Below, in pieces: positions 2,845 to 56,751 of a stretch of 64,000 nt of DNA (positions are counted from its first letter, which is position 1; the number at the start of each line of letters is the position of its first letter). The notes beneath the pieces were generated by a model. The model made no database searches. It saw only the letters and a list, made by a program, of their open reading frames with translations, and had not been told where the DNA came from. The stretch is taken from the IMG/VR virus record IMGVR_UViG_3300027798_000027, positions 1 through 64,000 of that record. One strand, given 5' to 3'. The stretch is from a virus (Duplodnaviria > Caudoviricetes). The position numbers and the translations under genes were made by a program.

Positions 2845-3553
2845 ATTTATATTCTTTCTGAGACCAAAACATTGATTTGTATCTATCAAAGAATTTGGTA
2901 TGTAATTTTTGTGAAATGCCATGTTGTTCTTTAAATTCTTTTTCAGAGCCAACCTCCATTTTCCAACTTTCACGTTTAAATGGAATAACCTGTGCTATTG
3001 GAGTTCCCTTTTTTATATACCCTTCAAAAGTTGGATCATTTATAACAAATGGAAAATTAACTGGAGAAGAATAGGTATCGGTATCCACAATTCCTGGAAG
3101 TATGGTAAATACAGCCTCCCTATGAAATGGTTGAACAAATAATGTAGAATATCCTTTAGGAGTTTTAATCCCCCAAGGATTTATAAATTTTGGATAAGCA
3201 AAATTACCTTGTAATGGATGATTTAATGCTTGTTCTATGGGGTGAAAATCTATTATTTTTAAATCATTGGGCCATTGAAAAAGTTGAGATTTTTTTCCTT
3301 CTACATCTTGTATAGATACGTAAACTTCTACTGGTAAAGTAATTATATACCCAGCAGAAATAGCATCAAACACTGGCATACAACGCTTTATAGTTGTTTT
3401 TGGTCCGTTTAAATTCCAGTCTGGAATTTTCTTACTACTGCCTAGATACGAAGGATGTTGTTTATACCAATCTGGAACAAATTGAAATGCTGGCTTTGGG
3501 CTTTCTATTTCCATCCCAACAGTGTTTATAAAAGTAATCTTTGACAAAAACAA
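2843..3553 (-). CDS. DUF6065-like / dUTPase-fold-like accessory protein (paralogue 1)
   Basis: PDWY, KRCMPVFDAISAGY, TPKGYS, LPGIVDTD, GTPIAQVIPF. Confidence 0.6.
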   Translation of the reverse strand: MFLSKITFINTVGMEIESPKPAFQFVPDWYKQHPSYLGSSKKIPDWNLNGPKTTIKRCMPVFDAISAGYIITLPVEVYVSIQDVEGKKSQLFQWPNDLKIIDFHPIEQALNHPLQGNFAYPKFINPWGIKTPKGYSTLFVQPFHREAVFTILPGIVDTDTYSSPVNFPFVINDPTFEGYIKKGTPIAQVIPFKRESWKMEVGSEKEFKEQHGISQKLHTKFFDRYKSMFWSQKEYK

Positions 3554-3854: not shown

Positions 3855-4026
3855 TTTAGGCCTACCTTCCATAGATCGTTTAGAATGAATCCAATTCCTG
3901 CAAATTGTTCAAGGTCTATTATTTTTGAGTCTGGGTTATCTACTTGTGCTTCGTGAAAAGAATCAGCAACCCATGCATCAACAAAGTGCCCGTTTCTTTT
4001 ATCTATAACTCCAAATATCTTAATCA

Positions 4027-6716: not shown

Positions 6717-6740
6717 TATTCCTCCTGTAACATTATACCA

Positions 6741-7454
6741 CTAAGAGACGGAGACATAGACTCCTTTTAAAATAACAGAGCCTTCGTTGTCAGATCTTAT
6801 TTGAGGTATGCCTCCAAAAACCTTCATCTGTTTTTTTGTAATAAAAATTGTTTGACAAAAAGATAGGTCGTATGAGTATTGGTATTTAAGGTTTGCAACA
6901 TATCCTGTAACTGAGTTTTCTTCGTCAAGTGAAAATGTTCTCATCCAAATTTCTGTGTTGTTTCCGTAGGTCTCTATTTCTAGATCATACTTGATATCAA
7001 CTTTAGCACCAAACTCAACCGTTTTAAAATTAATTCTTTTGGCTGCTTCATTTAAAAACATAGCACTGCTTTTTGAAGCATAGGTTTCAATTGAGTTTTC
7101 TTTATCTATTAATGGAAACAAGGAAACCCAGCCATCTTCACCTCTTTCTGGACCAATACTTTGTGGATGAAGGTTTTTATTTTTATAATATGCCCATCCA
7201 GGATACTGTCCTGATGGACTGTCATATCCTTCTCCACCTTTTCCAGGTTCGCCACGTTCGCCTCTGGGTCCTTCTGGCCCCTGGTCTCCTCTATCTCCTT
7301 TTTCACCCTTTGGTCCTTCAGGTCCTGCTGGACCTTTTGGCCCTGCCTCACCACGCTCACCTGCTATTCCTGGAACAGCAACATACTCAACAGTTGTCTG
7401 TAAAACGGTTTCCGAATATTTTTTCTTTGGGGGAAAGTCCATGCTTTTAGCCAT
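6741..7454 (-). CDS. Collagen-like (Gly-X-Y) virion protein
   Basis: GERGEAGPKGPAGPEGPKGEKGDRGDQGPEGPRGERGEPGKG. Confidence 0.8.
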   Translation of the reverse strand: MAKSMDFPPKKKYSETVLQTTVEYVAVPGIAGERGEAGPKGPAGPEGPKGEKGDRGDQGPEGPRGERGEPGKGGEGYDSPSGQYPGWAYYKNKNLHPQSIGPERGEDGWVSLFPLIDKENSIETYASKSSAMFLNEAAKRINFKTVEFGAKVDIKYDLEIETYGNNTEIWMRTFSLDEENSVTGYVANLKYQYSYDLSFCQTIFITKKQMKVFGGIPQIRSDNEGSVILKGVYVSVS

Positions 7455-9232: not shown

Positions 9233-9939
9233 GGTTTGGAAAGTCAGATAAGATACAGTTTATAAGCACTATTGAAGGTTTGGAATCTATTGAAGAGTGT
9301 TTGCCTAGACCTGCTAAACATTTCATTCCTCAGTGGTTTAAAGATATTCCTTCTACAAAAATAGGTACCGTAAAAGATTGTCCATCTTTTCCAGATTATT
9401 TTTCTCAAGGCTATATTATACCAATGTGGTGTGATACAAAGTTAAGGTGTGACAATGATAGGTGGCTTGTGGAAACATCCACACCACTAGTCTCTTGGGG
9501 GCATCATGGTAATGATCAATTTATAAACTATACAAATGCAAATTTTAACGGAGTTGATGGACAATTTGTTTTTAAAGCACATTCTCCATGGAAAATTATA
9601 ACTCCTCCAGGTTGGTCTGTTTTACAGTTACCATTATTTTATCATTTTAATAAAGACTGGTCCGTACTTCCTGGAGTTACAGATACAGATATAGATCAAG
9701 CAGTTAATCAACAAGTTTTATATCATGGAAATGGAAAAGAAATAATTATCAAAAGAGGAGAGCCTTTTGTTCTGTATGTTCCTTTTAAAAGATCACAAAA
9801 ATTAAAAAAAGAAATACGATATCAAACAGAAAAAGATAAAAAAATATTTAACAAAACTGAATTTAATTTGCATTCTGCCTTTATGCCAAATGGAATATAT
9901 AGAAAAATGCAAAGAAAAAGAGATAAAGAATTATCGTAA
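9229..9939 (+). CDS. DUF6065-like / dUTPase-fold-like accessory protein (paralogue 2)
   Basis: PQWF, KDCPSFPDYFSQGY, TPPGWS, LPGVTDTD, GEPFVLYVPFKR. Confidence 0.6.
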   Translation: MRFGKSDKIQFISTIEGLESIEECLPRPAKHFIPQWFKDIPSTKIGTVKDCPSFPDYFSQGYIIPMWCDTKLRCDNDRWLVETSTPLVSWGHHGNDQFINYTNANFNGVDGQFVFKAHSPWKIITPPGWSVLQLPLFYHFNKDWSVLPGVTDTDIDQAVNQQVLYHGNGKEIIIKRGEPFVLYVPFKRSQKLKKEIRYQTEKDKKIFNKTEFNLHSAFMPNGIYRKMQRKRDKELS

Positions 9940-11499
9940 GTATTTGTTTGCTAAATAGGCTGTTAGTGCTATTCCCGCACAAATTGCAAGAATTAACAAA
10001 CCTCTATCTGAGTGATCATAATCTCCAAGATGTATAAGGCTATTCATTATTCTTCAAAAGAAGACTGAGTCTCCATTAGTTTATTAAACTTTTCTTCTTC
10101 ACTCTGACCACACTCACAGGCATCACAACACTTTGTTTTTTTATTTAATATGCTCATACCTTTTGGAGTATGTCTGTAGGGTGGTACATTAATTTCAGAT
10201 TCCATGATCCTCCATGTATTTTAGTCGCTCCATAAGTTTGTGGTGCTCTGGATCTTCAAGCATTTCTTTAATAGCATCTGTAACTTTTTGACTTGGCATA
10301 CCGTCGTCATCTGCCATAGATGCTTCAAGGTTGTCTAAAATAGCCATACCAGTGCTGCCAAACCAATTATGATGATAGAGATTAAAATTTTTTGCTTCAT
10401 TCGCATGAAGTGCAGTAGTTATGTATTCTTATGTTTGTTTTTGCTACCCAGATAACTTTAGCGCAATGGTAGCAAGACCGCATAGAGTATTGTTTTTCTC
10501 TACGGTCCTTCCGAATTTCTAGTCCAAGTAAGTGCATATATTAATTCTATCATATAGACCACCAGGTCGTCAAGTTGTAGAAATACCCGACTTTTTCCTT
10601 GTAATCTGAGTATAGTTTATTTTGCTTAATCAAATCAGTATCGTGGGTATCCAAACCACAGTATCGGCATAACCCAGGACCTGTGTATGTATAGACGTGT
10701 TGGCACATAATATGATTATATACTATGAGCATGCCCCCTAGCAAATATATCTTTAGACTTTTTATAACAGTAATGATTTTAGCATACATAAGCAAGTGGG
10801 CAATTCAGGAAATACAGGTAGATTTCTTTACTACTTATCCAGAACTTAATCCAGCGAATATATTCCTACCCGCCTAAATCTGAAAAAATTTTCATTTTGA
10901 GAAAATCTGAATATTTTTCTTAGATGTATGATATGTGATTTTAAAAATAAAAAATAAAAAAAATAGTGAGCACACCACTGTGGATAGTGTGCCCTAGCAG
11001 CCTATGCTACTTACTTATCTTTTCTAATTAAATTAATAGAATAAATAAAAGCAATAGAGCCAATCAATAACCAAGTAGGAATTTCAATACCTACTCCGTT
11101 AGGCCATAAGCCATTGATGTATAGAGAAAAATATTCTCTGTCAAATAATAGTTCTAGGTTCACTATGCTACCTGCTCAATCTTGTGAACCATGTGCTCAA
11201 ACTTGAGTGATGATGTGTTTCCCTCATTGAGATCTTTCATAGTAGCGATGATTTCTTTCATGCTCTCAGCGGTTAGCAAACCTTTGTTTAGGCTACCTTG
11301 CCAAATTGTGTAAGTGATTTTCATTTATAGAACTCCTTCGTTAGTTAGTGCGATACCAAATATCATTGTGATAAAAGATAGTGATGAGATAATTAGTAAT
11401 ACTGTTAGCATTAGTCCTTATCCTCTCCGAACATTTCTACTAACACCTTGTTAGCATTTTGTAAAGCCTCTATGGCTTCGTTAACTTTGTCTATGTTAT

Positions 11500-11697
11500 T
11501 TATTTCCATAGTGATAACTCCTTAGCATACTTAGCCTGTTGGGCTATTCTTAATCTATCAGCAGGGGTGTTGCTGTAGTCCTTATTCTGTCGCATGACTG
11601 CAACATTTTTCATAATACAATCAAAGCACATGGCTAGGATTGTTCGCTTACTCACCTGCGTAGGTGTATTGCATAATTCGCAATTTTTGTTTATCAT
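11500..11697 (-). CDS. Small Zn-ribbon early protein
   Basis: CELC...CFDC; SD AAAGGAGA upstream; promoter at 11739-11760. Confidence 0.6.
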   Translation of the reverse strand: MINKNCELCNTPTQVSKRTILAMCFDCIMKNVAVMRQNKDYSNTPADRLRIAQQAKYAKELSLWK

Positions 11698-11738
11698 TTA
11701 CTATCTCCTTTCGTGAGATGTTTCTTTGTATACCTGCA

Positions 11739-11760
11739 AGTCTAGCAGTAGGGACTGACA
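11739..11760 (-). promoter_or_regulatory. Phage promoter TGTCAG-N6-CTG-N-TAGACT
   Basis: Same spacing as four plus-strand copies (12200, 13006, 13548, 14426). Confidence 0.65.
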
Positions 11761-11771
11761 TTGTGGGGGCT

Positions 11772-11880
11772 TTATTCGCTAGGCTCATTGTGATTTGTAT
11801 CACACTTATTCGCTAGGCTCACGCCTTGTGCGGTTATTTGCTAGGCTCACCCTCTACTAGAGAGTTATTTGCTAGGCTCA
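11772..11880 (-). repeat. Array of four 16-nt repeats TGAGCCTAGC(A/G)AATAA with unique 18/12/15-nt spacers; candidate sRNA
   Basis: Repeats at 11772, 11806, 11834, 11865; no ORF; promoter upstream on minus strand. Confidence 0.9.
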
Positions 11881-11920
11881 CGCACTAATTTTTTATCTAT
11901 ATTTAATTTTGTATAATGGA

Positions 11921-11949
11921 ATTATAGCAGGGATAACCCCAAAAGTCAA
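11921..11949 (-). promoter_or_regulatory. Consensus sigma70/SigA promoter TTGACT-N17-TATAAT with extended -10 TG
   Basis: Read directly on the minus strand. Confidence 0.8.
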
Positions 11950-12041
11950 GACGACACGCCGTGAATAACACGCATGTAATTAGTGATATACACCACATGA
12001 CAAATGGTGCAAATCGGACATTGGCTCGGGGATTTTTTGAG

Positions 12042-12145
12042 TTATCCACAGGGGTTATCCACAGACACGCCCATACTGGCGGGTATACCAATGGGTATCC
12101 ACATGATATAGATCACACTACCATTTTACGCTCAAGTTATCCACA
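12042..12145 (+). promoter_or_regulatory. DnaA-box cluster (TTATCCACA at 12042, 12055, 12137; GTATCCACA at 12095)
   Basis: Perfect matches to the canonical DnaA box between divergent promoters. Confidence 0.65.
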
Positions 12146-12199
12146 TGACCTACATCACAAGACACAATGTCCGTTTTGTCCTACCTACTGGTCAGTAAA

Positions 12200-12221
12200 T
12201 GTCAGACCCCCCTGTTATACT
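12200..12221 (+). promoter_or_regulatory. Phage promoter TGTCAG-N6-CTG-N-TATACT
   Basis: Fixed-spacing motif upstream of the first plus-strand early gene. Confidence 0.65.
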
Positions 12222-12273
12222 TCTAGTATAAAGATTGAACAATAAGTAAATCTCTTAAAGAAAGGAATTCAAA

Positions 12274-12447
12274 ATGAATTCACTAAAAAATAAAGTGTGT
12301 AAGCACACCGCTAATGTATTAGCGATATCTATCGTAAATGATATGAAATATACTTTCTGCGAAAATTGTGAGCAGAATATTTATTCTCACTATATTGAGG
12401 ACAATGACATCATGTCATATTGGTCATCATGGAAAGTAGGTAAGTAA
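12274..12447 (+). CDS. Small early hypothetical protein (Cys/His-containing)
   Basis: MNSLKNKVCKHTAN...FCENCEQ...; SD AAAGGA. Confidence 0.6.
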   Translation: MNSLKNKVCKHTANVLAISIVNDMKYTFCENCEQNIYSHYIEDNDIMSYWSSWKVGK

Positions 12448-12552
12448 ATGATATCTACAATAAAATTAAATTGTCGTATATGCGAACAGCCTATCTATAG
12501 CGTTCACTTTGATACGCAAGACATAATCACTTGCTCCAATTGTTGGGAGTAA
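12448..12552 (+). CDS. Small Zn-ribbon protein
   Basis: CRIC...CSNC, 34 aa, abuts the previous stop. Confidence 0.5.
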   Translation: MISTIKLNCRICEQPIYSVHFDTQDIITCSNCWE

Positions 12553-12553
12553 A

Positions 12554-12675
12554 ATGTTTAACGAAATAAAAAATAAAATAATTCGTATTCAAGAATTGCG
12601 CCGCAGTAATGCGGCAACACCAATTCCAAATAAAAAAAATATAGTAGAAAGGTAAAACATAAAAATGCAAAATAA
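12554..12675 (+). CDS. Small basic ELRRSNAA-family protein, apparently frameshifted at an A8 run
   Basis: IQELRRSNAATPIPNKK; stop at 12655 as given, KKKYSRKVKHKNAK with one extra A. Confidence 0.5.
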
Positions 12676-12825
12676 TACAGAAAGCATAACTAAGCAATTT
12701 GAAAACGCAGTTGAATTAACTAATTTAACAGAAGCGCAATTAGAAATAGTTAAGCAAATTTTAATAAATAAATTTAATAAATAAATTTAATAAAAAAAAT
12801 AAAATAAATAAAAAAGTTTTGCAGA

Positions 12826-12844
12826 AATAAAAACTCTGCAAAAT
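12826..12844. terminator. Terminator-like hairpin TTTTGCAGA...TCTGCAAAA (stem spans about 12816-12844)
   Basis: Inverted repeat after the small-gene cluster. Confidence 0.4.
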
Positions 12845-13072
12845 TTATTTAAATAAAAATAAATTGCAATAAAAAACCCGAGCCACCTCGGCGCAGACGG
12901 CGTGTCGCTTTAAGGACAATGTGTTTAAGATCACAGAAATTTTGTGGGGCATATCACACCGCTGAGCGTCTCACTATTTAAGATTACTGGCTAGTAGGTT
13001 GTAAATGTCTGCTAATTCTGATAAACTTACGGAGTAAGAAAATAAATAACAAAAAGAAAGAAGGTGGCTATA

Positions 13073-13276
13073 ATGGCTAACTTATACACAATAGAGGATT
13101 TACTAATTGGTAAATCTTATTCATCTAAATCCTTAACTGACGGAACAATTATTTCCGCAGAAAAATCTAAAGGTGCTCTTTGGTATGGTGATAATACTGA
13201 GGCCTATTTCGTAGAAATAGATGAAGGTCGCATTAACAATACTTTCCGCACAGTAGCGGTTCAAGTAGGTGGCTAA
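13073..13276 (+). CDS. Small SH3-like beta-barrel early protein
   Basis: MANLYTIEDLLIGKSYSSK...GTII...; SD AGAAGGTGG. Confidence 0.5.
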   Translation: MANLYTIEDLLIGKSYSSKSLTDGTIISAEKSKGALWYGDNTEAYFVEIDEGRINNTFRTVAVQVGG

Positions 13277-13602
13277 TGTCTAACTACCTTAACTATCAAG
13301 ATGAGATTTACTCTGATCTAGTTGCTGAGTATGGTGAGGATATAACCCTTGCCTACCATAACGCCAATATTTCGGACATGTCTTAATGGGATATGTAGAG
13401 ATATTCCATATGGACTCTGAGGGTGCTGGGTGGCTGGATCTTTCAGATATACCGCCTGAAACCCTGCTGGAGTTAGAGTTAGGCTTATTCAACGAAGGGG
13501 CTTTGTGAGGTATCTCACACCCCAACACACCCCCTACAATTAGAAAATGTCAGCGATAACTGATAGAATAATAACTCAAACAAAAACGAAAGGTGGTCAG
13601 AA

Positions 13603-13788
13603 ATGACTTATACTGTAAAACTAGAAACCTTCAATGGTGCTGTAAAAACTATCAACCTACCTTCTAAGGGTGCGGTTGCTCAATTCATAAACACTTATCC
13701 AAACCAATTACCTGTGGGCGTTCATGTAAAAATGTCCTGTGATTTGCTTGGTGTTCGTGGCACAATAAAGGGAAAGGCGTTAGCATAA
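13603..13788 (+). CDS. Small early hypothetical protein
   Basis: ORF after promoter 13548-13569 and SD GAAAGGTGG. Confidence 0.65.
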   Translation: MTYTVKLETFNGAVKTINLPSKGAVAQFINTYPNQLPVGVHVKMSCDLLGVRGTIKGKALA

Positions 13789-13936
13789 TGATAAGTAGCG
13801 TAATGACTTTTTTGTGTGATGAGTGTAATGGTGCAGGTTATATTTTTTGGGGAGATAACCTTGACTATGATGTAGAAAAGTGCGAATGTAAAAACTTTGC
13901 ACTAGGCACTTTATTTACTACTAAGGAGAACGACTA

Positions 13937-14128
13937 ATGACTAGAAAAGACTACATACAAACCGCTAACATCTTAAAAGAATTTATAGATGAAATTCCTC
14001 AAACCACTTATGAGGATTTAATAGACCAATTTTGTCAATGGTTTAAATCCGATAACGCAAACTTTGACTACGCAAGATTTGAAAAGGCTTGCGGAATTGA
14101 TGAGATTGGATTAGTAAGTGTTAACTAA
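13937..14128 (+). CDS. Small early hypothetical protein (MTRKDY...FDxxRFxxAC family)
   Basis: Widely recurring phage peptide pattern; SD AAGGAG. Confidence 0.7.
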   Translation: MTRKDYIQTANILKEFIDEIPQTTYEDLIDQFCQWFKSDNANFDYARFEKACGIDEIGLVSVN

Positions 14129-14264
14129 TTTAGATTTGCTTGCAATTATTATTGCGCTAAGCGGTTCAATGTTGGTAATGTTTTTGTTTTATAAACAAAA
14201 TGTTGCACAAGATAAAGAAATTCGCAGATTGCGAAATGAATTGCGTAAAGCGTTAAAAGTATAA
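14118..14264 (+). CDS. Small membrane protein
   Basis: GTG start, hydrophobic helix then basic coiled coil. Confidence 0.5.
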   Translation: MLTNLDLLAIIIALSGSMLVMFLFYKQNVAQDKEIRRLRNELRKALKV

Positions 14265-14270
14265 ATAAAA

Positions 14271-14296
14271 ATCCTGGACACGATCTAAAACTGTCC
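14271..14296 (+). ncRNA. Conserved 3'-UTR H-type pseudoknot, copy 1
   Basis: ATC-CT-GGACA-C-GAT-CTAAAAC-TGTCC. Confidence 0.75.
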
Positions 14297-14636
14297 GAAC
14301 ATTTGTTCTAAAAGGCCCGAGGTGCTCGGCGCCTGCGGCGTGTCGTACACAGGTTTATCCACAGGACTATTATGTGATTAAAAACACACTCCAGATTCTC
14401 CAGATTAAGGCGTCTAATTGGATTTTGTCAGTCGTATCTGATAGGATAAAGATATAAAGAAAGAAGGAACAAATGGGTAAAGTAAAAGAAGCACTAATGG
14501 ATATACTAGAGCACGAATACTGCTACGGCTATGGTTGGATATATCAAGGAAATAATGTAGACTTTGATAGTGAGCCTTGCGAGTGTAATCCTCACGCTAT
14601 CTCCGCTGACGAACTAATGGATTGGAAACTAAACTA

Positions 14637-19404: not shown

Positions 19405-19478
19405 GGTCCCATAGATCAATTGGTTAGATCGTTACCCTGTCACGGTAGAGGCTACGGGTTCAAGTCCCGTTGGGATCG
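19405..19478 (+). tRNA. tRNA-Asp(GTC)
   Basis: GGTCCCA/TGGGATC acceptor, TTACC-CTGTCAC-GGTAG anticodon arm, GGTTCAAGTCC T-arm; no encoded CCA. Confidence 0.95.
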
Positions 19479-19592
19479 CAAGTGCCCGAGTATAACATTT
19501 TTGTTATAATTGTATTACGTTGACATAAGATTTTTCCCATTTTCTCATTACGGATAGTTGACATTTTTCCCATTTTGTAGGATAATTAATTC

Positions 19593-27503: not shown

Positions 27504-27725
27504 ATGACTAACTGGACTGAAGAACTTAACGATAAACAAAAAGAAGATGTCTGGAACTTTGTTGTTTTTACTGTTAAAGAAATAAGAGAGCAGATTGCTA
27601 AAGACATTGAAGCAACTATTCCACTTTGGAAGTCAAAAGGCTTATTAAAGTCTCGTAGAACACAAAAAGCCTTTGAAGCATCTGCTGCAATTGCTAGAGG
27701 ACAGAACGAACAGATAAATGGCTAA
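27504..27725 (+). CDS. Hypothetical protein (IREQIAxDIEA motif)
   Basis: Shares motif with the short ORF 27261-27383. Confidence 0.55.
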   Translation: MTNWTEELNDKQKEDVWNFVVFTVKEIREQIAKDIEATIPLWKSKGLLKSRRTQKAFEASAAIARGQNEQING

Positions 27726-28677
27726 CATAGTCTTTCTTGGCAACTTTGAAGTGCCTTATAGTAGTGAGAATCATCATGCTAAGTCTTTGGAATCTCTTGG
27801 GCATACCGTGCAAAAATTGCAAGAGAAACAAGCGGGCAGCACAGAAATATTAAATGCAGCATTAAACTCTAATCTATTCATATGGGTACACACACATAGA
27901 TGGCAAACTCCAGGATCTAGGTCTATGACTGATGTGTTAAAAGAATTAAAGGCTGCTGGTATACCAACTATAACTTATCATTTAGATTTGTGGTTTGGCA
28001 TTGAGCGTGAAAAAGATTTAAAGGGTGATGACTTCTACACAAACATAGGTCATTTCTTTGCTACAGATAAGTTAATGTGTGATTGGTTTAATGAAAACAC
28101 AAGTGTTAAGGGTCACTTCTTGCCTGCTGGAGTGTATGATAAAGAGTGTTATGTCCATCAAGATTACGATCCAAATAACTTTGAGCATGACATTATTTTT
28201 GTTGGTAGCAGAGGATATCATCATGAACATAAATACCGTCCACAACTAATAGATTTCTTACGAAAGACATACGGTAAAAGGTTTTTACATGTAGGTGGAG
28301 ATGGTGACACTGGCACTGTTCGTGGTGAAGCGCTTAATCGCATGTATGCAAAAAGCAAGGTAGCCATAGGAGATAGTCTTAACATTAATTTTAACTATCC
28401 ATACTACACTAGCGATAGGTTGTTTGAGAGTACTGGTCGTGGTGGGTTTACTATTTATCCTCGCATCAAGGGGCTTGATGAATACTTTGAAGATGGTAAA
28501 GAGATTATATTTTATGAACATGGTAACCTTGAAGATCTTAAACAAAAAATAGATTACTACATTTTAGATGGATTGACTAGAGAAGAAATAAGGATTGCTG
28601 GTCATGAGCGGACTAAAAAAGAACATACATATGTTCATAGATGGTCAAGCATATTAGAAACCTTAAGCATAAAATGA
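27718..28677 (+). CDS. GT-B glycosyltransferase (CgeB/Glyco_trans_1_2-like)
   Basis: HDIIFVGS...SDRLFESTGRGGF...EIIFYE...HTYVHR. Confidence 0.85.
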   Translation: MANIVFLGNFEVPYSSENHHAKSLESLGHTVQKLQEKQAGSTEILNAALNSNLFIWVHTHRWQTPGSRSMTDVLKELKAAGIPTITYHLDLWFGIEREKDLKGDDFYTNIGHFFATDKLMCDWFNENTSVKGHFLPAGVYDKECYVHQDYDPNNFEHDIIFVGSRGYHHEHKYRPQLIDFLRKTYGKRFLHVGGDGDTGTVRGEALNRMYAKSKVAIGDSLNINFNYPYYTSDRLFESTGRGGFTIYPRIKGLDEYFEDGKEIIFYEHGNLEDLKQKIDYYILDGLTREEIRIAGHERTKKEHTYVHRWSSILETLSIK

Positions 28678-29561
28678 AATATTTAGTTACGGGTGGTGCT
28701 GGCTTTATTGGATCAAACCTTGTTGATAAGTTAATTAGTCTTGGAAATGATGTTATTTGTATTGATGATGAGTCTGCAGAATGTCATGAACAGTTCTATT
28801 GGAATGATAAAGCACAAAACTATAAGTATGATGTCTGTGACTATGATTTAATTGCACCACTTTTTGGTGGCGTTGACTGCGTGTTTCACGTTGCATCTGA
28901 TGCAAGAATACAGCCAGCAATATTAAATCCTAAAAAATCTATTCAATCAAACGCAGTAGGAACAGCCAATGTTCTTGAACTTTGTAGGGTTAACAAGGTA
29001 GATAGATTAATCTATTCAAGCACATCTTCTTCTTATGGTAAAAAGGCTTTGCTTCCAAACCAGGAAACACAATCACCTGATCCACTAACTCCATACTCTG
29101 CTGCTAAGGTTTTTGGTGAAAACCTTGCAAAAGTTTATTATAATCTTTATGGACTAAAAACAATATCTCTTAGATACTTCAATGTCTATGGAGATAGACA
29201 GCCATTGAAGGGTCAATATGCACCAGTAATAGGACTATTCTTAAAGCAATACTATGAATCAAAGCCACTAACAGTAGTTGGCGATGGATCTCAGCGCAGA
29301 GACTTTACTCATATATCAGACGTAATAGAAGCAAACATTCTTGCATCTGAGGTTGAAAATGGATTTGGGGAAGTATATAACGTTGGGTATGGAAGTAACT
29401 ATTCTATACTTGATATTGCTAATATGATTTCAAATGATATTAAATTTATTCCGTCAAGAATTGGTGAGGTGCAAGAAACTCTTGCATCTAATTCAAAGTT
29501 TAAAGATTTAACTGAATGGGTTCCAAAGGTATCTTTAATGGATTGGTTGCAAAATGACTGA
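28674..29561 (+). CDS. NAD-dependent nucleotide-sugar epimerase/dehydratase
   Basis: TGGAGFIGS, YSAAK (YxxxK), LRYFNVYG, RDFTHI. Confidence 0.95.
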   Translation: MKYLVTGGAGFIGSNLVDKLISLGNDVICIDDESAECHEQFYWNDKAQNYKYDVCDYDLIAPLFGGVDCVFHVASDARIQPAILNPKKSIQSNAVGTANVLELCRVNKVDRLIYSSTSSSYGKKALLPNQETQSPDPLTPYSAAKVFGENLAKVYYNLYGLKTISLRYFNVYGDRQPLKGQYAPVIGLFLKQYYESKPLTVVGDGSQRRDFTHISDVIEANILASEVENGFGEVYNVGYGSNYSILDIANMISNDIKFIPSRIGEVQETLASNSKFKDLTEWVPKVSLMDWLQND

Positions 29562-30267
29562 AATGATTAAGGCTACTGTTAACGGGGAATTTGAAATAAT
29601 GTTACCAAAGCATCGTGCAGATAGGCCAGAATGGTATCAACCACATGGTTGGGAAAAAATTAGATTAAAATCAATGCATGAAAATATCGGTAAAGGCGAT
29701 GTTGTTTACTATGTTGGAGCAGAAGAAGGAGAGATGCCTGCCCTATGTCAAATGTGGGGAGCAGAGGTAGTTTTATTTGAACCCAATCCAAAGGTTTGGT
29801 CACACTTTCCTTTACTTTGGAGTGCCAACAATTTAGAAAAACCAATTGCATGTATTCCTGGGTTTGCATCAGATAAAGATAATAAACTTGCACGTATTTA
29901 TTATGGCGAGTTTCCACCAGAAGCAGATGCTCCTATTGAGGCTGCTCATGGATTTAAAGAATTGCAGTATGAAGCAGATAAATATGGTCAAACAAAAATT
30001 GATACGCTTGTCTATGAAAAAGGAATGAAACCGCCAACAGCAATATCCCTTGATGTTGAGGGTAGTGAATGGAGGGTCCTAGGAGGGGCTGAAAGGGTCC
30101 TTAGAGAGCACAAACCTAAGATTTGGTTGTCTGGACACCCAGAATTTATGATGATGTATTGGAAAGAATACTTGCATGATTTAAGACAGTTTATTAAGGG
30201 TATTGGCTATAAAGAAACATTGCTTGATTATCAACATGAAGTACACTTATATTATGAATCATATTAA
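29554..30267 (+). CDS. FkbM-family methyltransferase
   Basis: YVGAEEG, FEPNP, ISLDVEGSEWRVLGG. Confidence 0.85.
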   Translation: MTEMIKATVNGEFEIMLPKHRADRPEWYQPHGWEKIRLKSMHENIGKGDVVYYVGAEEGEMPALCQMWGAEVVLFEPNPKVWSHFPLLWSANNLEKPIACIPGFASDKDNKLARIYYGEFPPEADAPIEAAHGFKELQYEADKYGQTKIDTLVYEKGMKPPTAISLDVEGSEWRVLGGAERVLREHKPKIWLSGHPEFMMMYWKEYLHDLRQFIKGIGYKETLLDYQHEVHLYYESY

Positions 30268-31108
30268 AGCATATCTTTACTCAGTTAAACAAGAAGATTG
30301 TGCTGCTGATAAATGGGATTACGGTTTATTAAAACAATTTTTTAATAAAAATAATATTAAACCAGACAAAGTAACGACCTTGCCTAACATAGATAGAGCC
30401 TTTGTTGTTATTCCTGGACCACAAAATGTAGATTATGAAGATCAAATATCTGAAGAGTTAAGTAAGATAAGCAGGGTAGTTCTATTTATTACTGGAGATG
30501 AAAGCGCTACCTTTAAGGTTGATAAGATAGAGCATAGTAATATTGAGATTTGGATTCAATATCCCCACAGAAAACATTCACAATATAATAAATTAGCGTT
30601 AGGTGTTCCACAACATCTATCAAATAATTTACCAGAGTATCAAGATAAATCTTACGATGTATTTTTTTCAGGACAAATAACTCATCAAAGAAGACAAGAA
30701 CTCGCAACTGTTATGCCTGACATACCAAACTCTTTTTATAATCCGACTAATGGATTTGCGGAAGGCTTAAGTCCAAAATCATATTACGATAAAATGTTTT
30801 TATCAAAGATTGTTCCTTGCCCTAGTGGAGCAATGGTTATTGATTCATTTAGATTCTATGAAGCAATTGAAATGCTTTGTTTTCCCATAGGAGATAAGTT
30901 AGATTCAAAAATGCAAAATACAGATTTTTTTAATTTTTTATTTCAAGGTGAGCACTCAATAAAAACTGTTGAAAATTGGCAAACCTTATCTAATTTATTA
31001 CCTGACTTATTAAATAACTACACATTTGAAATGCATCAAATTGTTTGTTGGTGGATTAAATATAAAAGAGATCTTTTTATTGAGTTAATGAGGCAAATAA
31101 ATGCATAA
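30254..31108 (+). CDS. Exostosin-like / GT-B glycosyltransferase
   Basis: YDVFFSGQ..., SKIVPCPSG...DSFRFYEAIEMLCFPI. Confidence 0.7.
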   Translation: MNHIKAYLYSVKQEDCAADKWDYGLLKQFFNKNNIKPDKVTTLPNIDRAFVVIPGPQNVDYEDQISEELSKISRVVLFITGDESATFKVDKIEHSNIEIWIQYPHRKHSQYNKLALGVPQHLSNNLPEYQDKSYDVFFSGQITHQRRQELATVMPDIPNSFYNPTNGFAEGLSPKSYYDKMFLSKIVPCPSGAMVIDSFRFYEAIEMLCFPIGDKLDSKMQNTDFFNFLFQGEHSIKTVENWQTLSNLLPDLLNNYTFEMHQIVCWWIKYKRDLFIELMRQINA

Positions 31109-31862
31109 AAGAGATATAACAATTGTCATGGCTACTTCTGTAATTACAAATCACCCAAGCACAAAAATGATAGATCAAACTATTAGTGATATTCGTGTTC
31201 ATTTTCCAGACAACGAAATTATTATGCAGATAGATGGTCTTAGGGAAGAACAACAAAATCGTAAAAAAGATTATGATAAATATAAAAATCGCATTTTGTG
31301 GAAATGTTTACATGAAGATAAAAACATATTACCATTTATATTTAAAGAGCATAGTCATCAAACCAACATGATGCGTCAAACAATTACTGAAGTTAAAACA
31401 CCGCTATTACTTTATGTTGAAGGCGATGCTCCTTTAACTCCAGACACACCAATAGATTGGGACAAGTGTTTAGATATGTTTGAATACAATAAAGCAAATA
31501 CTATTCGTTTTCATTTTGAAGCATTTATACCAAAAGATCACGAACATCTTATGTTTGGATTAGAAGATGGCTTTATGAAAACTACACAATGGAGTCAGCG
31601 ACCACATTTAAGTAGAAAAAAATATTATAAAGATATTGTGCTTCCAAGATGTAAAGATAAATTTTTTATAGAAGATACATTTCATGGAGCAATTCAAGAT
31701 GATATATCTCCATATGGGCAGTTTAATCAAGAGGGTTGGGAGATGCATAAACTTTGGATTTATCACCCTGAAGGTAATATTAAACGCTCTTATCATTTAG
31801 ATGGTCGTCAAGGCGGAAGAAAGTATACTTCTGATGATGTAACTTGGGGGTATAAAGAATGA
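31101..31862 (+). CDS. GT-A-like glycosyltransferase
   Basis: ITIVMATS, LLYVEGD (DxD-like), WSQRPH; position in the GT cluster. Confidence 0.6.
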   Translation: MHKRDITIVMATSVITNHPSTKMIDQTISDIRVHFPDNEIIMQIDGLREEQQNRKKDYDKYKNRILWKCLHEDKNILPFIFKEHSHQTNMMRQTITEVKTPLLLYVEGDAPLTPDTPIDWDKCLDMFEYNKANTIRFHFEAFIPKDHEHLMFGLEDGFMKTTQWSQRPHLSRKKYYKDIVLPRCKDKFFIEDTFHGAIQDDISPYGQFNQEGWEMHKLWIYHPEGNIKRSYHLDGRQGGRKYTSDDVTWGYKE

Positions 31863-32896
31863 GACTGGGGATCATAGCAAGATCAGACAACACTGGCCTT
31901 GGTAATCAGACTAAAGAGTTAGTTAATATGCTTAACCCTGATAAAGTTCTTTTGATTGACTCTACCCCGTTTAATAACAACAAGCAACATCCACACTGGT
32001 ATGACCAATACAGTTGTATCAAGACACAAGGTTTTCCATCTGTTCAACAGATAAAAATGTTTTTAGGAGATGTAGATGTTGTATTAAGTTGTGAAACATT
32101 TTATGATCAAAATTTTGTAAGGTTTGCAAATAGACGTGGTGTAAAGACCATTCTTCAATATAACTATGAGTTGTTTGGTCACTTGTCAAACCCAGAACTT
32201 CCACTGCCAACTGTATTGTTATCGCCTAGTTTATGGCAAATTGAAACAATTCAAAGCATGTTTGGAGATAGAACAAAAATAATTCACCTTCCGCCACCAA
32301 CCAATCCTGAGTTATTTACAACTGTAAAAAATAATAACATTTCTAAATCACATAATAGACTATTACACATTGCTGGTAAGAAGGCAGCCAAAGATAGAAA
32401 CGGTACTGAAACTGTAATAAATATGTTAAAACACTCTAAAGCCGATTATGAGTTAGTTATTAGAAGTCAAAGTGAAGTAGTAACTAATGTAACAGACTCA
32501 AGGCTAAAGATTGAAATTGGCAATCCAGAAAACAGGGAAGACCTATACAATGGCTTTGATGCTATGGTTTTACCTAGACGATATGCTGGTCTTTGTTTAC
32601 CGATGAATGAGGCCTTGCTTTCTGGTCTTCCCGTTTTTATGACAAATGTTTCACCCAATAATCAGATCTTGCCACAGGATTGGTTAGTTGACTCAGATTC
32701 CATTGGAACCATTAGAACAAAGGTTAGAATTGATTTGGTTGAAGCAAATAATGTTTTGTTAGCACAAACAATTGATAAGTATATGTCTATCAATGATAAA
32801 ACTAATTATAAACAACAGGCTTATGAGTTAGGGTTTAACAATTTTGCACCAGCAATATTAAAAGAAAAATACTTAGAACTTATTTTTCAAATCTAG
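31859..32896 (+). CDS. GT4-like glycosyltransferase
   Basis: TGLGNQ, DAMVLPRRYAGLCLPMNEALLSGLPVF. Confidence 0.85.
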   Translation: MRLGIIARSDNTGLGNQTKELVNMLNPDKVLLIDSTPFNNNKQHPHWYDQYSCIKTQGFPSVQQIKMFLGDVDVVLSCETFYDQNFVRFANRRGVKTILQYNYELFGHLSNPELPLPTVLLSPSLWQIETIQSMFGDRTKIIHLPPPTNPELFTTVKNNNISKSHNRLLHIAGKKAAKDRNGTETVINMLKHSKADYELVIRSQSEVVTNVTDSRLKIEIGNPENREDLYNGFDAMVLPRRYAGLCLPMNEALLSGLPVFMTNVSPNNQILPQDWLVDSDSIGTIRTKVRIDLVEANNVLLAQTIDKYMSINDKTNYKQQAYELGFNNFAPAILKEKYLELIFQI

Positions 32897-35758: not shown

Positions 35759-36040
35759 TTACTCTATTGTTAAGGCTTGCCAGGTAGTTGCCCAGTCTTG
35801 TTTGGTTTTATGCTTATTAAACTCTCTTGAAACTTCTCCGCCTTCTAAATAAACACCGCCCCAAACACCCCACTCTTTTCCTGAAACACCATTAGCAAAA
35901 CATATTTTTCTAACTGGACATTGTTTACAAAGTGCATCAACATCTCTTCTAGATCCTTCATGATCTTCGTATTTATCAAAAAATGCGTTGTTGTCCGTTC
36001 CCAAACATAAAGCCTGATCTTTCCACAAATGCTGTTTCAA
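35759..36040 (-). CDS. whiB: WhiB-family Fe-S transcription factor
   Basis: WKDQALC...CKQCPVRKIC...GVWGG. Confidence 0.95.
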   Translation of the reverse strand: MKQHLWKDQALCLGTDNNAFFDKYEDHEGSRRDVDALCKQCPVRKICFANGVSGKEWGVWGGVYLEGGEVSREFNKHKTKQDWATTWQALTIE

Positions 36041-40994: not shown

Positions 40995-42680
40995 TTAAAC
41001 GTCCTTTTTAGATACAAGTTTGGATATTTCTGGAAACCAAACATAATCTAGTTCACTATTTTTTAATGTATAAAAGGCATCTTCTGGTGTTTCAACCAAT
41101 GGTTTGCCAGCAAGATTAAAACTAGTATTAAGTAATATCCCCATATTTGTTATTTTTTTAAATTCATTCAACAAATTAAAAATTATTGGATTAGACTTGT
41201 CAACTGTCTGTATTCTACAAGTGTTGTCAATGTGGACGACCCCTGGTATTTTTTTAATTGCATCATCTTTTACTGGAAAAGAAATGGTCATGAATTCACT
41301 TTTTTTAATTCTACCCATTTCAAAATATTTACTAGACTCTTCTTCTAATACCATTGCAGCGAATGGGCGATACCATTCTCTTTTTTTAATTCTGTTTACT
41401 TTTTCTTTTGCATCTTTATCTCTGCAATCAAAAAGAATTGATCTATTTCCAAGTGCTCTTGGACCAGCCTCTGCGAGTCCATTATAAACTGCAACACTTT
41501 TCCCATTAGAAATTAATTTTGCAACATCGGATATAGAAACATCTAATCCATTAATATCATCAAGCAAATAGTTTTTACCATTAAAAAATGTATGCTCTAA
41601 TTTATTAATAGTAGAATCTAATGTTGTATCACGATAACACTTCATTGCTGCTCCAATACTATTTCCAGTGTCGTCTGCTAGTGGTTCAAAGAAAAAATTA
41701 ATTTCTGGAAATTGTGTAATATAATAATTATTTGCAACGACATTTAAACCGTATCCACCAGTGATACATACATTTTTAATACCTGTTTTTTCTACATACA
41801 TATTAATCATTGACGCAACTGCTTCTTGAGTTTCTTTTTGAACGTTCCAAGCATAATCTGCATATTCTTGATAATTATTAGTGTTTATTTCTTTTGTTGA
41901 TTTATGTTTTAAATTTAAATAGTTTGCCACTCTCATATCACTAAAAAATTCATGACCAAAATTATAGTCAATAGGTATTGAATCTTTGTTAAATAGTTTA
42001 GGATAGTTTTTATTTTTATTTCCATAAGCAGAAAGCCCCATTGTTTTACCATTTTCAAGTGGGTCTTGTCTAATCAATGTTGTTGCTGTTTCATAAACTT
42101 TAACAATTCCAAACATTGATTTAGCATTAAAATCACAATCTGGATTATCATTTTTTAATAAATCAACAAACTCATGTCCATAATTTTCAAATACCCAAAA
42201 ATTTTTACACAATGTTTTAAAATTATTTGGATAAGATGCTAAATAAACGCTTTCAGATTCTCTAAGAGAATTTCCCCAAACGGACCCATTTCTATCAATT
42301 ACAAAAACAAGTGCTTGGTCAAATCCACTGTCATAAAACGCTAAATTTGCATGAATTAAGTGATGTTCATTGGAATAATCAAATTCTCTGGCAATCTTAA
42401 AATTTTTTAATGCTAGTTTTTTAATTATATTATATACATCTGGCTCTTGCGTTGGAGTTGAATAAGCGTAGTCAACACTTTCTTCTTTTAAATTTATTTC
42501 AAAAAAAGATTTTATTGGAAGTTGATCTCTTTTTGTTTTTGAAAAACGCTCTTCTTTAAAAAAATTAACTATTTTGCCATTTTCAAAAAGACAAATAGAA
42601 GAGTCATGCATTGAAGATACACCAAGTATTTTTGTTATTTTATTGCCCCCTTTAGTAAGTGAACAATTTATTAAAGACAT
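40995..42680 (-). CDS. Carbamoyltransferase (NodU/CmcH family)
   Basis: HDSS..EERFSK, HHLIHA, GKTMGLSAYG, GGYGLN, EAGPRALGNRS, REWYRPFA, LNTSFN. Confidence 0.9.
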   Translation of the reverse strand: MSLINCSLTKGGNKITKILGVSSMHDSSICLFENGKIVNFFKEERFSKTKRDQLPIKSFFEINLKEESVDYAYSTPTQEPDVYNIIKKLALKNFKIAREFDYSNEHHLIHANLAFYDSGFDQALVFVIDRNGSVWGNSLRESESVYLASYPNNFKTLCKNFWVFENYGHEFVDLLKNDNPDCDFNAKSMFGIVKVYETATTLIRQDPLENGKTMGLSAYGNKNKNYPKLFNKDSIPIDYNFGHEFFSDMRVANYLNLKHKSTKEINTNNYQEYADYAWNVQKETQEAVASMINMYVEKTGIKNVCITGGYGLNVVANNYYITQFPEINFFFEPLADDTGNSIGAAMKCYRDTTLDSTINKLEHTFFNGKNYLLDDINGLDVSISDVAKLISNGKSVAVYNGLAEAGPRALGNRSILFDCRDKDAKEKVNRIKKREWYRPFAAMVLEEESSKYFEMGRIKKSEFMTISFPVKDDAIKKIPGVVHIDNTCRIQTVDKSNPIIFNLLNEFKKITNMGILLNTSFNLAGKPLVETPEDAFYTLKNSELDYVWFPEISKLVSKKDV

Positions 42681-43512: not shown

Positions 43513-43543
43513 TATTCTCCTTTTAATACATTATACACTTTCG

Positions 43544-43616
43544 TACCTCTAACGGAATTTGAATCCGTGTTACCGCCGTGAAAGGGCGACGTCCTAGGCC
43601 ACTAGACGATAGAGGC
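43544..43616 (-). tRNA. tRNA-Glu(TTC)
   Basis: GCCTCTA/TAGAGGT acceptor, TCGCC-CTTTCAC-GGCGG, GGATTCAAATTCC. Confidence 0.95.
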
Positions 43617-43620
43617 GTAG

Positions 43621-43691
43621 AGCGGATAGCGGGAATCGGACCCACACATTAACCTTGGCAAGGTTACGCACTACCACTATGCAATATCCGC
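43621..43691 (-). tRNA. tRNA-Gly(GCC)
   Basis: GCGGATA/TATCCGC acceptor, TAACC-TTGCCAA-GGTTA; T-loop reads TCCGATT. Confidence 0.9.
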
Positions 43692-55290: not shown

Positions 55291-56751
55291 TTATTTATAC
55301 TCCCGAATAACTTTAAGAACATCTTTATGATTTATAAAACTAGATAAACTTTCGTTATGTAAATAATCATTAATAATTTGATCAGCAGCATGTCTATAAT
55401 CATTTGACAAAAATTGATATTCTTTTAGAATTGCTTCTTTATCAAATAAATTTAGACCATGGATTACTTTAATAAAGTTTGCTGAGCCAAACATTGTATA
55501 ACCTGAATTATTTATAAAATCTTCAGTAGCAGGAAGTTTTGTTTTCCATTTTTCTAAATTATTTTTTAATGATTCTGGTATTTCTAAATCTAAAATATTT
55601 TTCCAAAAATCAGTGTCGTTTCTTTTTGATAAATAATGTAAAACAATAAAGTCTCTTATATTTTCAATAATAGTATTAAAAGAATTGTTGTAAGACTCTA
55701 CAACTTTGTTGTCGTAGTTTTGAATTTTATCCATTAATAAAAAACTTTGTTGGATACTTAAACCAATTGAGGTTGCTTCAAGTGGTTCAAAAAAACTGCC
55801 ACTTAGACCTATAGCAACACAGTTTTTAGTCCAAACTGTTTCTAAAGCGCCAGGATCAAACTGAAAAGTTTTTCCAATTGTTATTTCGTGTCCAAGTTCT
55901 TTTTCTACTTCTAACTTGGCTTCGTCAGCGTTTATAAAATTACTATCGTAAATATAACCATTTCCGTGACGACCCCAGGTTGGGATCTTAAACCTCCAGC
56001 CTGCGTTCATTCCTTTTGCTAGTGTCCAAAAATTATAATTATCTTCATCTCCTGTTGGAAATGTAATTGCAGAATTTAATTTTAAATATTTATTAAAAGA
56101 TTTCCATTTAACATTTAATTTATTTACTAGGGTTTTTTGAAATCCAGTTGCATCTATATAAAAATCACTGTTGTAATTTGATTTTTTTCCAATTAATTTT
56201 TTAATATAACCATTTTTGTCTAGTTTAACGTCAATAATTTCATCATCAAAAAGTTTAATTCCTTTGTTTAATGCTATTTTTTTTAAAAACTCATTTAATT
56301 TAAAAGTATTAAAATGATACTGATTTGTTGGTGGATTTAAATTTACGTTTAAGCCATTTACGTTAACTAAATTTTTTTCAAAATTATCTGAGCAAAGAAG
56401 ATCTGAATTTTCAGAAATTTGTTTTGCATAAATTGCATGGTATGGTCCAAACTTTATGTTAAATGGCTCACTAACTGAGTGTAAATATTTTTTATTAGGT
56501 ATCCAGTTATCAAACATAACACCTATTTTAAAAGTTGCATCACATTCTTTAATAATTTGGCTTGGCAATATTCCAACAAAATCCATAAAGTCTTTAAAGT
56601 GTTCTGTAGATCCTTCGCCAACACCAATAATACCAATGTTTGAAGAATAAATTAAATTAACATCTATGCTACTACGTTGTTTTAGAATAAGTGCAGAAAT
56701 TAATCCAGCGGTACCACCACCTACAACAGTTAAACTTTTTACTTGTTTCAT
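55291..56751 (-). CDS. Flavin-dependent halogenase (tryptophan halogenase/PrnA family)
   Basis: VGGGTAG, IGVGEGS, DATFKIG, YIDATGF, GWRFKIP, FFEPLEATSI. Confidence 0.85.
   Translation of the reverse strand: MKQVKSLTVVGGGTAGLISALILKQRSSIDVNLIYSSNIGIIGVGEGSTEHFKDFMDFVGILPSQIIKECDATFKIGVMFDNWIPNKKYLHSVSEPFNIKFGPYHAIYAKQISENSDLLCSDNFEKNLVNVNGLNVNLNPPTNQYHFNTFKLNEFLKKIALNKGIKLFDDEIIDVKLDKNGYIKKLIGKKSNYNSDFYIDATGFQKTLVNKLNVKWKSFNKYLKLNSAITFPTGDEDNYNFWTLAKGMNAGWRFKIPTWGRHGNGYIYDSNFINADEAKLEVEKELGHEITIGKTFQFDPGALETVWTKNCVAIGLSGSFFEPLEATSIGLSIQQSFLLMDKIQNYDNKVVESYNNSFNTIIENIRDFIVLHYLSKRNDTDFWKNILDLEIPESLKNNLEKWKTKLPATEDFINNSGYTMFGSANFIKVIHGLNLFDKEAILKEYQFLSNDYRHAADQIINDYLHNESLSSFINHKDVLKVIREYK

Follow-up and report, generated by a model that had tools for sequence, protein, structure and literature searches.

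A modular, covarying RNA predicted to lead early transcripts of uncultured freshwater actinophages

The first 64,000 nucleotides (nt) of the IMG/VR virus record IMGVR_UViG_3300027798_000027 (Duplodnaviria; Caudoviricetes), hereafter the window, carry in their early region a short, repeat-containing element that is the subject of this report. On the minus strand, the 16-mer UGAGCCUAGC(A/G)AAUAA (in DNA form, TGAGCCTAGC(A/G)AATAA) occurs in four exact copies, at 11880-11865, 11849-11834, 11821-11806 and 11787-11772, as an earlier note on this DNA had described; read in the direction of transcription, their periods are 31/28/34 nt. Chance predicts 1.6 occurrences of the 16-mer with three or fewer mismatches in the window, an expectation far exceeded by four exact clustered copies, and no other copy exists in the whole 87.6-kilobase (kb) virus record. 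The first copy starts at least 35 nt downstream of a near-consensus promoter, TTGACT-17-TATAAT, which was the top promoter-like site of a 2-kb scan (11/12 matches) and would start transcription near A11914 on the minus strand. The note had proposed this promoter, a second one after the array and a position at the divergence point of the early region, and all three are borne out (Table 1). The listed open reading frames (ORFs) that span the array are a GTG-started frame of 51 codons (11803-11648) and, upstream, a TTG frame. Each of them runs over conserved RNA or promoter sequence, and the description of the array as ORF-less holds in practice. Beyond it, the leftward early operon opens with a gene of 65 amino acids (aa), and co-oriented small ORFs continue down to ~9931.

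Comparison with related loci indicates that the 16-mers pair two by two within two predicted tandem RNA rods of ~58 nt each, and the picture of a four-repeat array gives way to one of two folded units. In each rod the order is an outer helix (P1), a 16-mer, a hairpin (P2), the second 16-mer and the closing strand of the outer helix (P1′). The two 16-mers are joined through their central CUAG, which creates two identical asymmetric internal loops, 5′-UGAGC / 5′-CAAAUAA. A covariance model (R1), built from an alignment of related units, matched exactly two units when the genome was searched, both of them the tandem units of the window. The minimum free energy fold of the isolated 129-nt window RNA recovers the comparative topology (-28.9 kcal/mol; the comparative structure itself scores -22.4), and that of the whole 176-nt leader does not give the comparative fold (z = -1.95). 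The earlier note had seen a hairpin in each of the three spacers. Spacers 1 and 3 are indeed the conserved P2 hairpins of units 1 and 2, but spacer 2 is not conserved in relatives. Its apparent hairpin, CGC-ACAAG-GCG, was rejected: the sequence joins two P1 strands, the 3′ one of unit 1 (CGCAC, 11832-11828) and then the 5′ one of unit 2 (GGC, 11825-11823). The idea that several motif copies are displayed between hairpins survives in part: a multi-copy conserved motif does lie between variable helices, which fits a multivalent binding platform, but the 16-mers pair with each other and are not single-stranded.

The P1 and P2 classes of unit 2 recur near-identically in loci L083, L113 and L076. 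As the note had observed of one spacer, P2 of unit 2 is also a perfect CRP box (TGTGA-N6-TCACA, CRP/GlxR-like; window 11789-11804), and this class of P2 is found in L005, L006, L083 and L113 as well. In the window the predicted start of the second promoter lies ~64 nt beyond the centre of the box, and this P2 class may serve both as an RNA helix and as a DNA operator.

An exact 16-mer scan of IMG/VR returned at least 120 contigs, nearly all with a pair of copies 25-34 nt apart, and the element as a whole is present in at least 227 IMG/VR contigs. Each 16-mer pair encloses a P2 hairpin and is enclosed by P1, and both helices vary in sequence and length among contigs yet remain complementary: 92 different P2 inserts and 95 different P1 flank pairs were counted, and GNRA loops are common. 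The central helix was examined by a partner test in which the scan fixed a change in the first conserved strand, strand a (non-G at position 9 or non-C at position 6), and left the partner free. An exactly compensating partner change was present in 68/68 distinct non-CUAG units, which fell into the classes CUAC/GUAG (58 units), CUAU/AUAG (8), GUAG/CUAC (1) and AUAG/CUAU (1). With a looser pattern, the central helix was perfectly complementary in 312/312 units, in 10 sequence combinations of 4 or 5 base pairs (bp), and the 5-bp helices include CUAAG/CUUAG, CUAAU/AUUAG and CUGAG/CUCAG. A MAFFT alignment of 149 distinct units has 89.3% of its cells paired, and shuffles give 66.4% (0/500 reach the observed value); slid partners pair in only 21-41% of cells, and double-change cells number 429, although many contigs are closely related and the cells are therefore not independent events. 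The partner test and the covariation of P1 and P2 are unaffected by ascertainment through search patterns. An alternative register offered by RNAalifold (G4-C10′, C5-G9′) was rejected: in the 66 CUAC/GUAG and CUAU/AUAG units the changed a9 would face an invariant C5′, with which it cannot pair, and it pairs perfectly with b6.

To judge from this covariation, the minus strand encodes a structured RNA of modular build; promoters, co-oriented genes and sense-strand GNRA loops assign the strand. The earlier note had suggested a search for arrays with the same repeat and different spacers in related phages, and had taken conservation of the spacer hairpins as the feature that would distinguish RNA from DNA. 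Such arrays were found; their spacers vary as covarying helices, and the hairpins are kept, which favours RNA.

What is conserved in this RNA is a predicted asymmetric internal loop, here called module M, in which 5′-UGAGC-3′ enters a short helix on one strand and 5′-CAAAUAA-3′ exits the helix on the other. The outer helix side of the module often has a purine-purine mismatch or a one-base bulge. The common twin unit, as in the window, consists of two modules in opposite orientation around a 4-5-bp central helix; helix sequences and lengths vary freely, whereas the loop nucleotides are almost invariant. One-module hairpins also occur (28 cases, vs 1 in a reversed-sequence control), as do same-orientation nested two-module forms and three-module relatives of the form P0-UGAGC-P1-[twin]-P1′-CAAAUAA-P0′, in which P0 covaries. 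The one-module and the three-module nested variants point to the single module as the conserved unit. Near-invariance of the 12 loop nucleotides spans phages with DnaE identity down to 66%. Since the UAA strand lies opposite GAG with a 3-4-nt A-rich bulge, the module would presumably allow a sheared A.G pair, a reverse-Hoogsteen U.A pair and an A stack, like UAA/GAN, loop E/sarcin-ricin and kink-turn (K-turn) motifs, and we take it to depart both from the canonical K-turn (there is no G.A at 1b.1n) and from the bulged-G consensus.

Minimal one-module or same-orientation two-module versions are seen at L074:2793-2847 (-), L231:5753-5832 (-), L208, L212 and others, for example P0(CCUAG)-UGAGC-hairpin-CAAAUAA-P0′, often a few hundred nt from a twin unit. 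A phage-like contig of 85 kb (L350, CAZCDW010000001.1), found in a metagenome-assembled genome (MAG) labelled uncultured Bifidobacterium, holds three units in 4 kb (2931-3001, 3904-3975 and 6734-6804), each preceding a block of small genes; one has the 5-bp central helix CUGAG/CUCAG and one begins AGAGC in place of UGAGC.

The position of the element relative to promoters is as regular as its fold. A promoter-like element ends 19-47 nt before the first conserved strand in 199 of the 217 units that have distinct contexts. It is of the TTGAC/T-N16-18-TANNNT type in 141/217 units, where it ends 22-46 nt upstream, and matches of the TGTCRG-N10-TANNNT type number 66. From these distances P1 would begin roughly 5-33 nt into the transcript. 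The earlier note's view of a promoter-driven element acting at the RNA level is supported by the promoters at 199/217 units and by the covarying helices. A leader word, AAAUA(A/G), is present in 193/220 distinct leaders, mostly 21-22 nt ahead of the first conserved strand. The word, written (A)AUUAAAUA(A/G) in its longer form, lies in the window at 11899-11910, a few nt past the predicted start, and resembles the CAAAUAA half of the module; it may serve as a spare half-site or else belong to the initial transcribed region of the promoter.

Unit length is about 58-80 nt. Sense-strand terminator-like hairpins are rare within 250 nt after a unit (0.24 per kb), and a ribosome binding site (RBS) with a start codon follows within 24-50 nt in about a third of units, the RBS distance ranging overall from 24 to 270 nt. 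A PafBC-type promoter lies within 150 nt downstream of 46/217 units. The first downstream genes encode small proteins of 30-85 aa in 43 unrelated clusters, and ten small proteins flanking the window element matched no Pfam family. Complete genomes of ~100-110 kb hold one unit at the model threshold, and other loci hold two to five. Complete genomes have one to a few copies, and a unit does not accompany each gene cassette. Units that occur on both strands of a locus point away from each other without exception, the hub between them spanning 1-2.4 kb (46 loci; convergent, 0). The promoter position and the genes that follow predict that the element is the 5′ leader of early mRNAs. The earlier note had envisaged a discrete small RNA (sRNA) of ~150 nt, which does not fit: no terminator follows the units, and in many relatives RBS starts come 24-50 nt after the unit.

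Upstream of the early promoter lies a divergent control hub that in the window also contains composite TGTGA-N6-TCAC + TGTGGATAA sites, GACACGCC words and AATGTCCGxTTTGTCC words. Related hubs are likewise rich in TGTGA-N6-TCACA boxes, GACACGCC words and iteron-like repeats. Across 201 loci, strict DnaA boxes peak at 2.45 per kb within the 250 nt upstream of units, and 85/189 loci have a DnaA box within 400 nt. The hub at 11950-12200 is a candidate origin or entry-control region. The divergence point is also surrounded by promoters of the pattern TGTCAG-N10-TANNNT, which matches the PafBC/RecA-NDp promoter type of Actinobacteria, whose mechanism has been described (PMC11804915). One of these is the second promoter of the leftward operon, which begins 8 nt past P1 of unit 2. 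Related complete genomes carry 5-15 such promoters each, clustered in the early region, and the phage early genes appear, from promoter pattern, to be plugged into the host DNA-damage activator.

Table 1. Positions of the RNA units, promoters and neighbouring features in the window
Feature	Position	Strand	Details
Sigma-A/sigma-70-type early promoter	11921..11949	-	-35 TTGACT 11949-11944, 17-nt spacer, TG-extended -10 TATAAT 11926-11921
AU-rich 5′ leader ahead of first helix	11886..11914	-	contains AAAUAU 11904-11899, local version of the conserved AAAUA(A/G) word
RNA unit 1 (predicted)	11828..11885	-	P1 GUGCG 11885-11881 / CGCAC 11832-11828, C11833 bulged; R1 59.8 bits, E = 1.9e-12
RNA unit 1, inner parts	11880..11834	-	strand a 11880-11865, P2 CUCUC-UAGUA-GAGGG 11864-11850, strand b 11849-11834
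RNA unit 1, central helix	11875-11872 with 11844-11841	-	CUAG with CUAG
RNA unit 2 (predicted)	11768..11825	-	P1 GGC 11825-11823 / GCC 11770-11768, G11822.A11771 mismatch; R1 58.2 bits, E = 5.1e-12
RNA unit 2, inner parts	11821..11772	-	strand a 11821-11806, P2 UGUGAU-ACAA-AUCACA 11804-11789 flanked by G11805.A11788, strand b 11787-11772
RNA unit 2, central helix	11816-11813 with 11782-11779	-	
Second promoter, PafBC/RecA-NDp type	11739..11760	-	TGTCAG 11760-11755, N10, TAGACT 11744-11739; pattern match, 0 control matches in this genome
First gene of leftward early operon	11500..11697	-	65 aa, CxxC...CxxC motifs, no Pfam family
Terminator-like hairpin in leftward operon	10968..10994	-	11-bp stem + T run; ~780 nt downstream of the RNA units
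Divergent control hub upstream of promoter	11950..12200		DnaA-type and CRP-like boxes, repeat words; context, not part of the RNA
DnaA boxes, three exact	12042-12050, 12055-12063, 12137-12145		TTATCCACA; in hub
TGTGA-N6-TCACA-like boxes	11984-11997, 12104-12117, 12146-12159		in hub
PafBC/RecA-NDp-type promoters (TGTCAG-N10-TANNNT) around divergence point	11739-11760 (-), 12200-12221 (+), 13548-13569 (+), 14426-14447 (+)		
WhiB-family gene	35852-36025	-	49 bits, above Pfam cut-off

By gene content the carriers are ~100-kb WhiB-encoding actinophages, a large uncultured group that seems to come from freshwater. The DnaE-type polymerase of the window is 55% identical to those of Streptomyces phages, and five complete motif-bearing genomes show DnaE identities of 66-91% among them. 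WhiB, regarded as an indicator of actinophages (PMC10202952), is encoded in all five; its presence in the window and in these relatives supports an actinobacterial host. The sources all look like freshwater lakes, and 11 lake or freshwater metatranscriptome runs share 5-12% of the words of window 9500-14500, small shares that are not evidence of transcription. Among cultured phages, blastn of the 1-kb region against GenBank phages gave no match, the canonical unit gave a chance match only in a search too insensitive for 16-mers, and Streptomyces phage BillNye (DnaE 55% identical) has no unit; isolated Nanopelagicales phages were considered as relatives and proved to be an unrelated 39-kb group. 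The earlier note had proposed to look for the 16-mer in host genomes. A scan of 596 Gb of genome contigs gave mostly single chance matches, as expected; the true units in it were confined to small MAG contigs that show the promoter layout of these phages and to the 85-kb Bifidobacterium-labelled MAG contig. When 150 sampled genomes of that MAG's phylum were searched with the covariance model, nothing convincing emerged (best 28 bits).

Elsewhere in the window, PHROG matches at 27718-32896 (+), 40995-42680 (-) and 55291-56751 (-) point to a run of glycosyltransferase-like genes, along with a carbamoyltransferase of NodU/CmcH type and a tryptophan-halogenase-like flavoprotein; these may act in DNA or surface modification or as auxiliary metabolic genes. 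Three tRNA genes are present: Asp-GTC (19405-19479), Glu-TTC (43543-43616) and Gly-GCC (43620-43691).

Comparison with catalogued RNAs gave no counterpart. In Rfam 15, no match overlapped the element at E <= 10 (window 10500-13500), nothing at all matched at E <= 5 in nine loci with canonical units, and a literature search on the motif letters returned only unrelated papers. A catalogue of more than 10,000 candidate structured RNAs from IMG/VR describes no such motif in its text (Fremin et al., 2023, PMC10690425); since that catalogue was drawn from the same source, intergenic regions of IMG/VR phage contigs, the motif may be among its unnamed candidates. By conservation and position, the element is a new family among predicted promoter-proximal phage leader RNAs.

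Several characterized phage RNAs offer points of comparison. The putL and putR sites of HK022 are cis-acting, protein-independent processive antiterminators that work through the zinc-binding domain of beta′ (PMC9378689). Like them, the element is an irregular helical RNA of ~70 nt with conserved bulges or loops. It is encoded shortly after the early promoters of both divergent arms, where long early operons begin, and no dedicated conserved protein gene adjoins it. There is, however, no sequence similarity, the host is actinobacterial and not E. coli, and the likeness is one of predicted fold and position. In lambda, nutL and nutR (boxA + boxB, with the N antiterminator) are also RNA sites past divergent early promoters, and many P2 hairpins have GNRA-type loops like boxB. 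Conversely, P2 loops are variable (UAGUA and ACAA in the window), the conserved part is an internal loop and not a hairpin loop, no boxA-like conserved strand was seen and no N-like gene was identified.

By analogy with these systems, we tentatively propose that the element is a cis-acting leader RNA for put/nut-like processive antitermination (or anti-pausing) by RNA polymerase, through one to four binding modules, a reading to which we give an appreciable chance that nonetheless stays below even. Module M, in one to four copies per leader, would be the recognition site for a conserved host component; because the early promoter is of host type, the first partner available would be the host RNA polymerase. 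The nascent RNA would stay with, or load a factor onto, the polymerase that made it, and the early operon would then be read through pause and termination signals, the two tandem units of the window doubling the dose on the leftward operon. The scarcity of sense-strand terminators after the unit, the divergent pairs, the unrelated small genes downstream and the size of ~58-80 nt are all consistent with this proposal, and the strong terminator-like hairpin at 10994-10968 is a candidate target if the RNA antiterminates. Several observations weigh against it. Downstream terminator-like hairpins reach no higher density on the sense strand than on the antisense, a covariance search detected no unit in the rightward operon of this phage, and in ~40% of units a second promoter lies between unit and gene, making the gene independent of the leader-bearing transcript. 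In its cryo-EM structure, put consists of two adjacent stem-loops (stem I, with a triplex, and stem II) arranged in a V and repeats no module, whereas the element is one nested rod with one to three copies of one loop, and the variable module number suits a multivalent protein site, which argues against a strict put analogue. In addition, invariance of the loop letters is partly circular, the loci having been fetched by patterns that fix those letters, and transcription of the element is itself predicted from its promoters.

Antitermination has to be weighed against other roles for an RNA at this position. The irregular rod, of ~2 turns, could instead be a processing or stability element, a site for a host endoribonuclease (of RNase III type, or RNase E/J at the A-rich loops) at which cleavage would trim the leader and set the 5′ end and half-life of early mRNAs, as T7 RNase III sites do. 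This is unlikely, though it is the strongest of the rivals. A rod with internal loops does head predicted early polycistronic transcripts, the A-rich single strands lie between helices, and the twin form has a pseudo-symmetry of the kind that a dimeric enzyme would favour; the one- and three-module forms break that symmetry, however, and 12 near-invariant loop nucleotides over a DnaE span reaching 66% identity exceed the conservation that RNase III sites usually need. The RNase III signals of T7 and SP82 are also irregular, internally looped hairpins that recur in a genome and belong to early polycistronic phage mRNA, but they lie between genes, whereas the element is at the 5′ end in one to three copies per genome with far more conserved loops. 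A phage-encoded RNase III was not found, although the host enzyme would suffice.

The earlier note had favoured a trans-acting decoy or sponge, an abundant early RNA whose two to four modules would titrate a host regulatory or defence protein. A strong promoter, one to four module copies and variable helices are in keeping with it, as are the ~40% of units followed by an independent gene promoter, where the RNA could be the upstream promoter's main product. We nevertheless consider a decoy improbable: nothing specific supports such a role, there is no terminator or defined 3′ end, the RBS within 24-50 nt in about a third of units makes the element part of an mRNA, and a 100-kb genome has only one to three copies. 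The lack of any module copy in 150 sampled genomes of one phylum also means that no host RNA is known that it would mimic. An antisense target search found no complement of the 16-mer with three or fewer mismatches in the window. The systems to which the note had likened the array (CsrB/RsmZ, ToxI and RNA anti-CRISPRs, directed against clustered regularly interspaced short palindromic repeats) share with it multiple short conserved motif copies in a non-coding, promoter-driven RNA, and the resemblance goes little further. CsrB/RsmZ present GGA in hairpin loops of a terminated sRNA, while here UGAGC/CAAAUAA form internal loops, the hairpin loops vary and there is no terminator. ToxI needs a complete repeat of ~34-36 nt, a terminator and a ToxN-family toxin gene; here the repeat is 16 nt, the copies pair mutually, and neither a terminator nor an adjacent toxin gene is present. 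More generally, ToxI and CRISPR mimics repeat a self-folding 28-36-nt unit, beside a toxin gene or matching host repeats, and here only 16 nt are conserved.

A riboswitch-like sensor, with a small molecule or ion bound by each module M or by two modules together and the leader tuning early expression to host state, seems doubtful enough to merit only a slim chance. Invariant internal-loop nucleotides between freely covarying helices are aptamer-like, and the tandem and twin arrangements recall cooperative riboswitches. The element thus has the conserved core with covarying helices that a riboswitch would show, but neither an expression platform (there is no terminator, and the RBS distance is 24-270 nt) nor a consistent gene class, the downstream genes belonging to 43 unrelated families and the module number ranging from one to three per element. 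Even less probable is that the RNA acts as a ligand or mimic of PafBC, its A-rich single strands engaging the WYL (Sm-like) domains of the PafB/PafC heterodimer or recruiting PafBC co-transcriptionally, so that an early sigma-A transcript would switch on the phage TGTCAG-N10-TANNNT promoters without DNA damage. Such a promoter does lie near the RNA end in the window and at 46/217 units, and the early regions are full of them. On the other side, 66 units are themselves driven by PafBC promoters, most units have no such promoter downstream, and 12-nt single-stranded RNA failed to activate mycobacterial PafBC in vitro (PMC11804915).

The remaining alternative, raised by the note as a DNA operator array, places the function in the DNA, as a direct-repeat operator array or a folded single-stranded DNA signal of the origin-like hub. 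The element does adjoin DnaA boxes, CRP-like boxes and iteron-like repeats, and one P2 class is a TGTGA-N6-TCACA box. Against this, 177/312 units have non-identical repeats whose centres differ by exact compensation, the spacing varies from 25 to 36 nt, P1 and P2 change freely in sequence and length while remaining nested and complementary, and GNRA loops occur only on the sense strand. The element also keeps a fixed position relative to the promoter, and its orientation always follows transcription. The operator array is rejected on these grounds, and a DNA-level role of any kind is the least probable of the readings considered here, close to negligible.

If confirmed, the element would be a well supported RNA family with more than 300 examples and compensatory change in every helix. 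Its predicted core is a small, stackable internal-loop module. The family would show where early transcription begins in a lineage of ~100-kb freshwater actinophages that is abundant and uncultured, and the covariance model may serve as a marker of these phages and of where their early promoters lie. To our knowledge, RNA-only antiterminators of the put kind are known essentially from HK022-type coliphages. Should the element prove to be an antiterminator, it would represent a second, unrelated class acting on actinobacterial RNA polymerase, and reprogramming of the polymerase by nascent RNA would become testable in a new system. Engagement of PafBC, if true, would mean that a phage RNA turns on the phage's own promoters without DNA damage. 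A module that instead binds a host protein or ligand would provide a ready multivalent handle for finding that partner.

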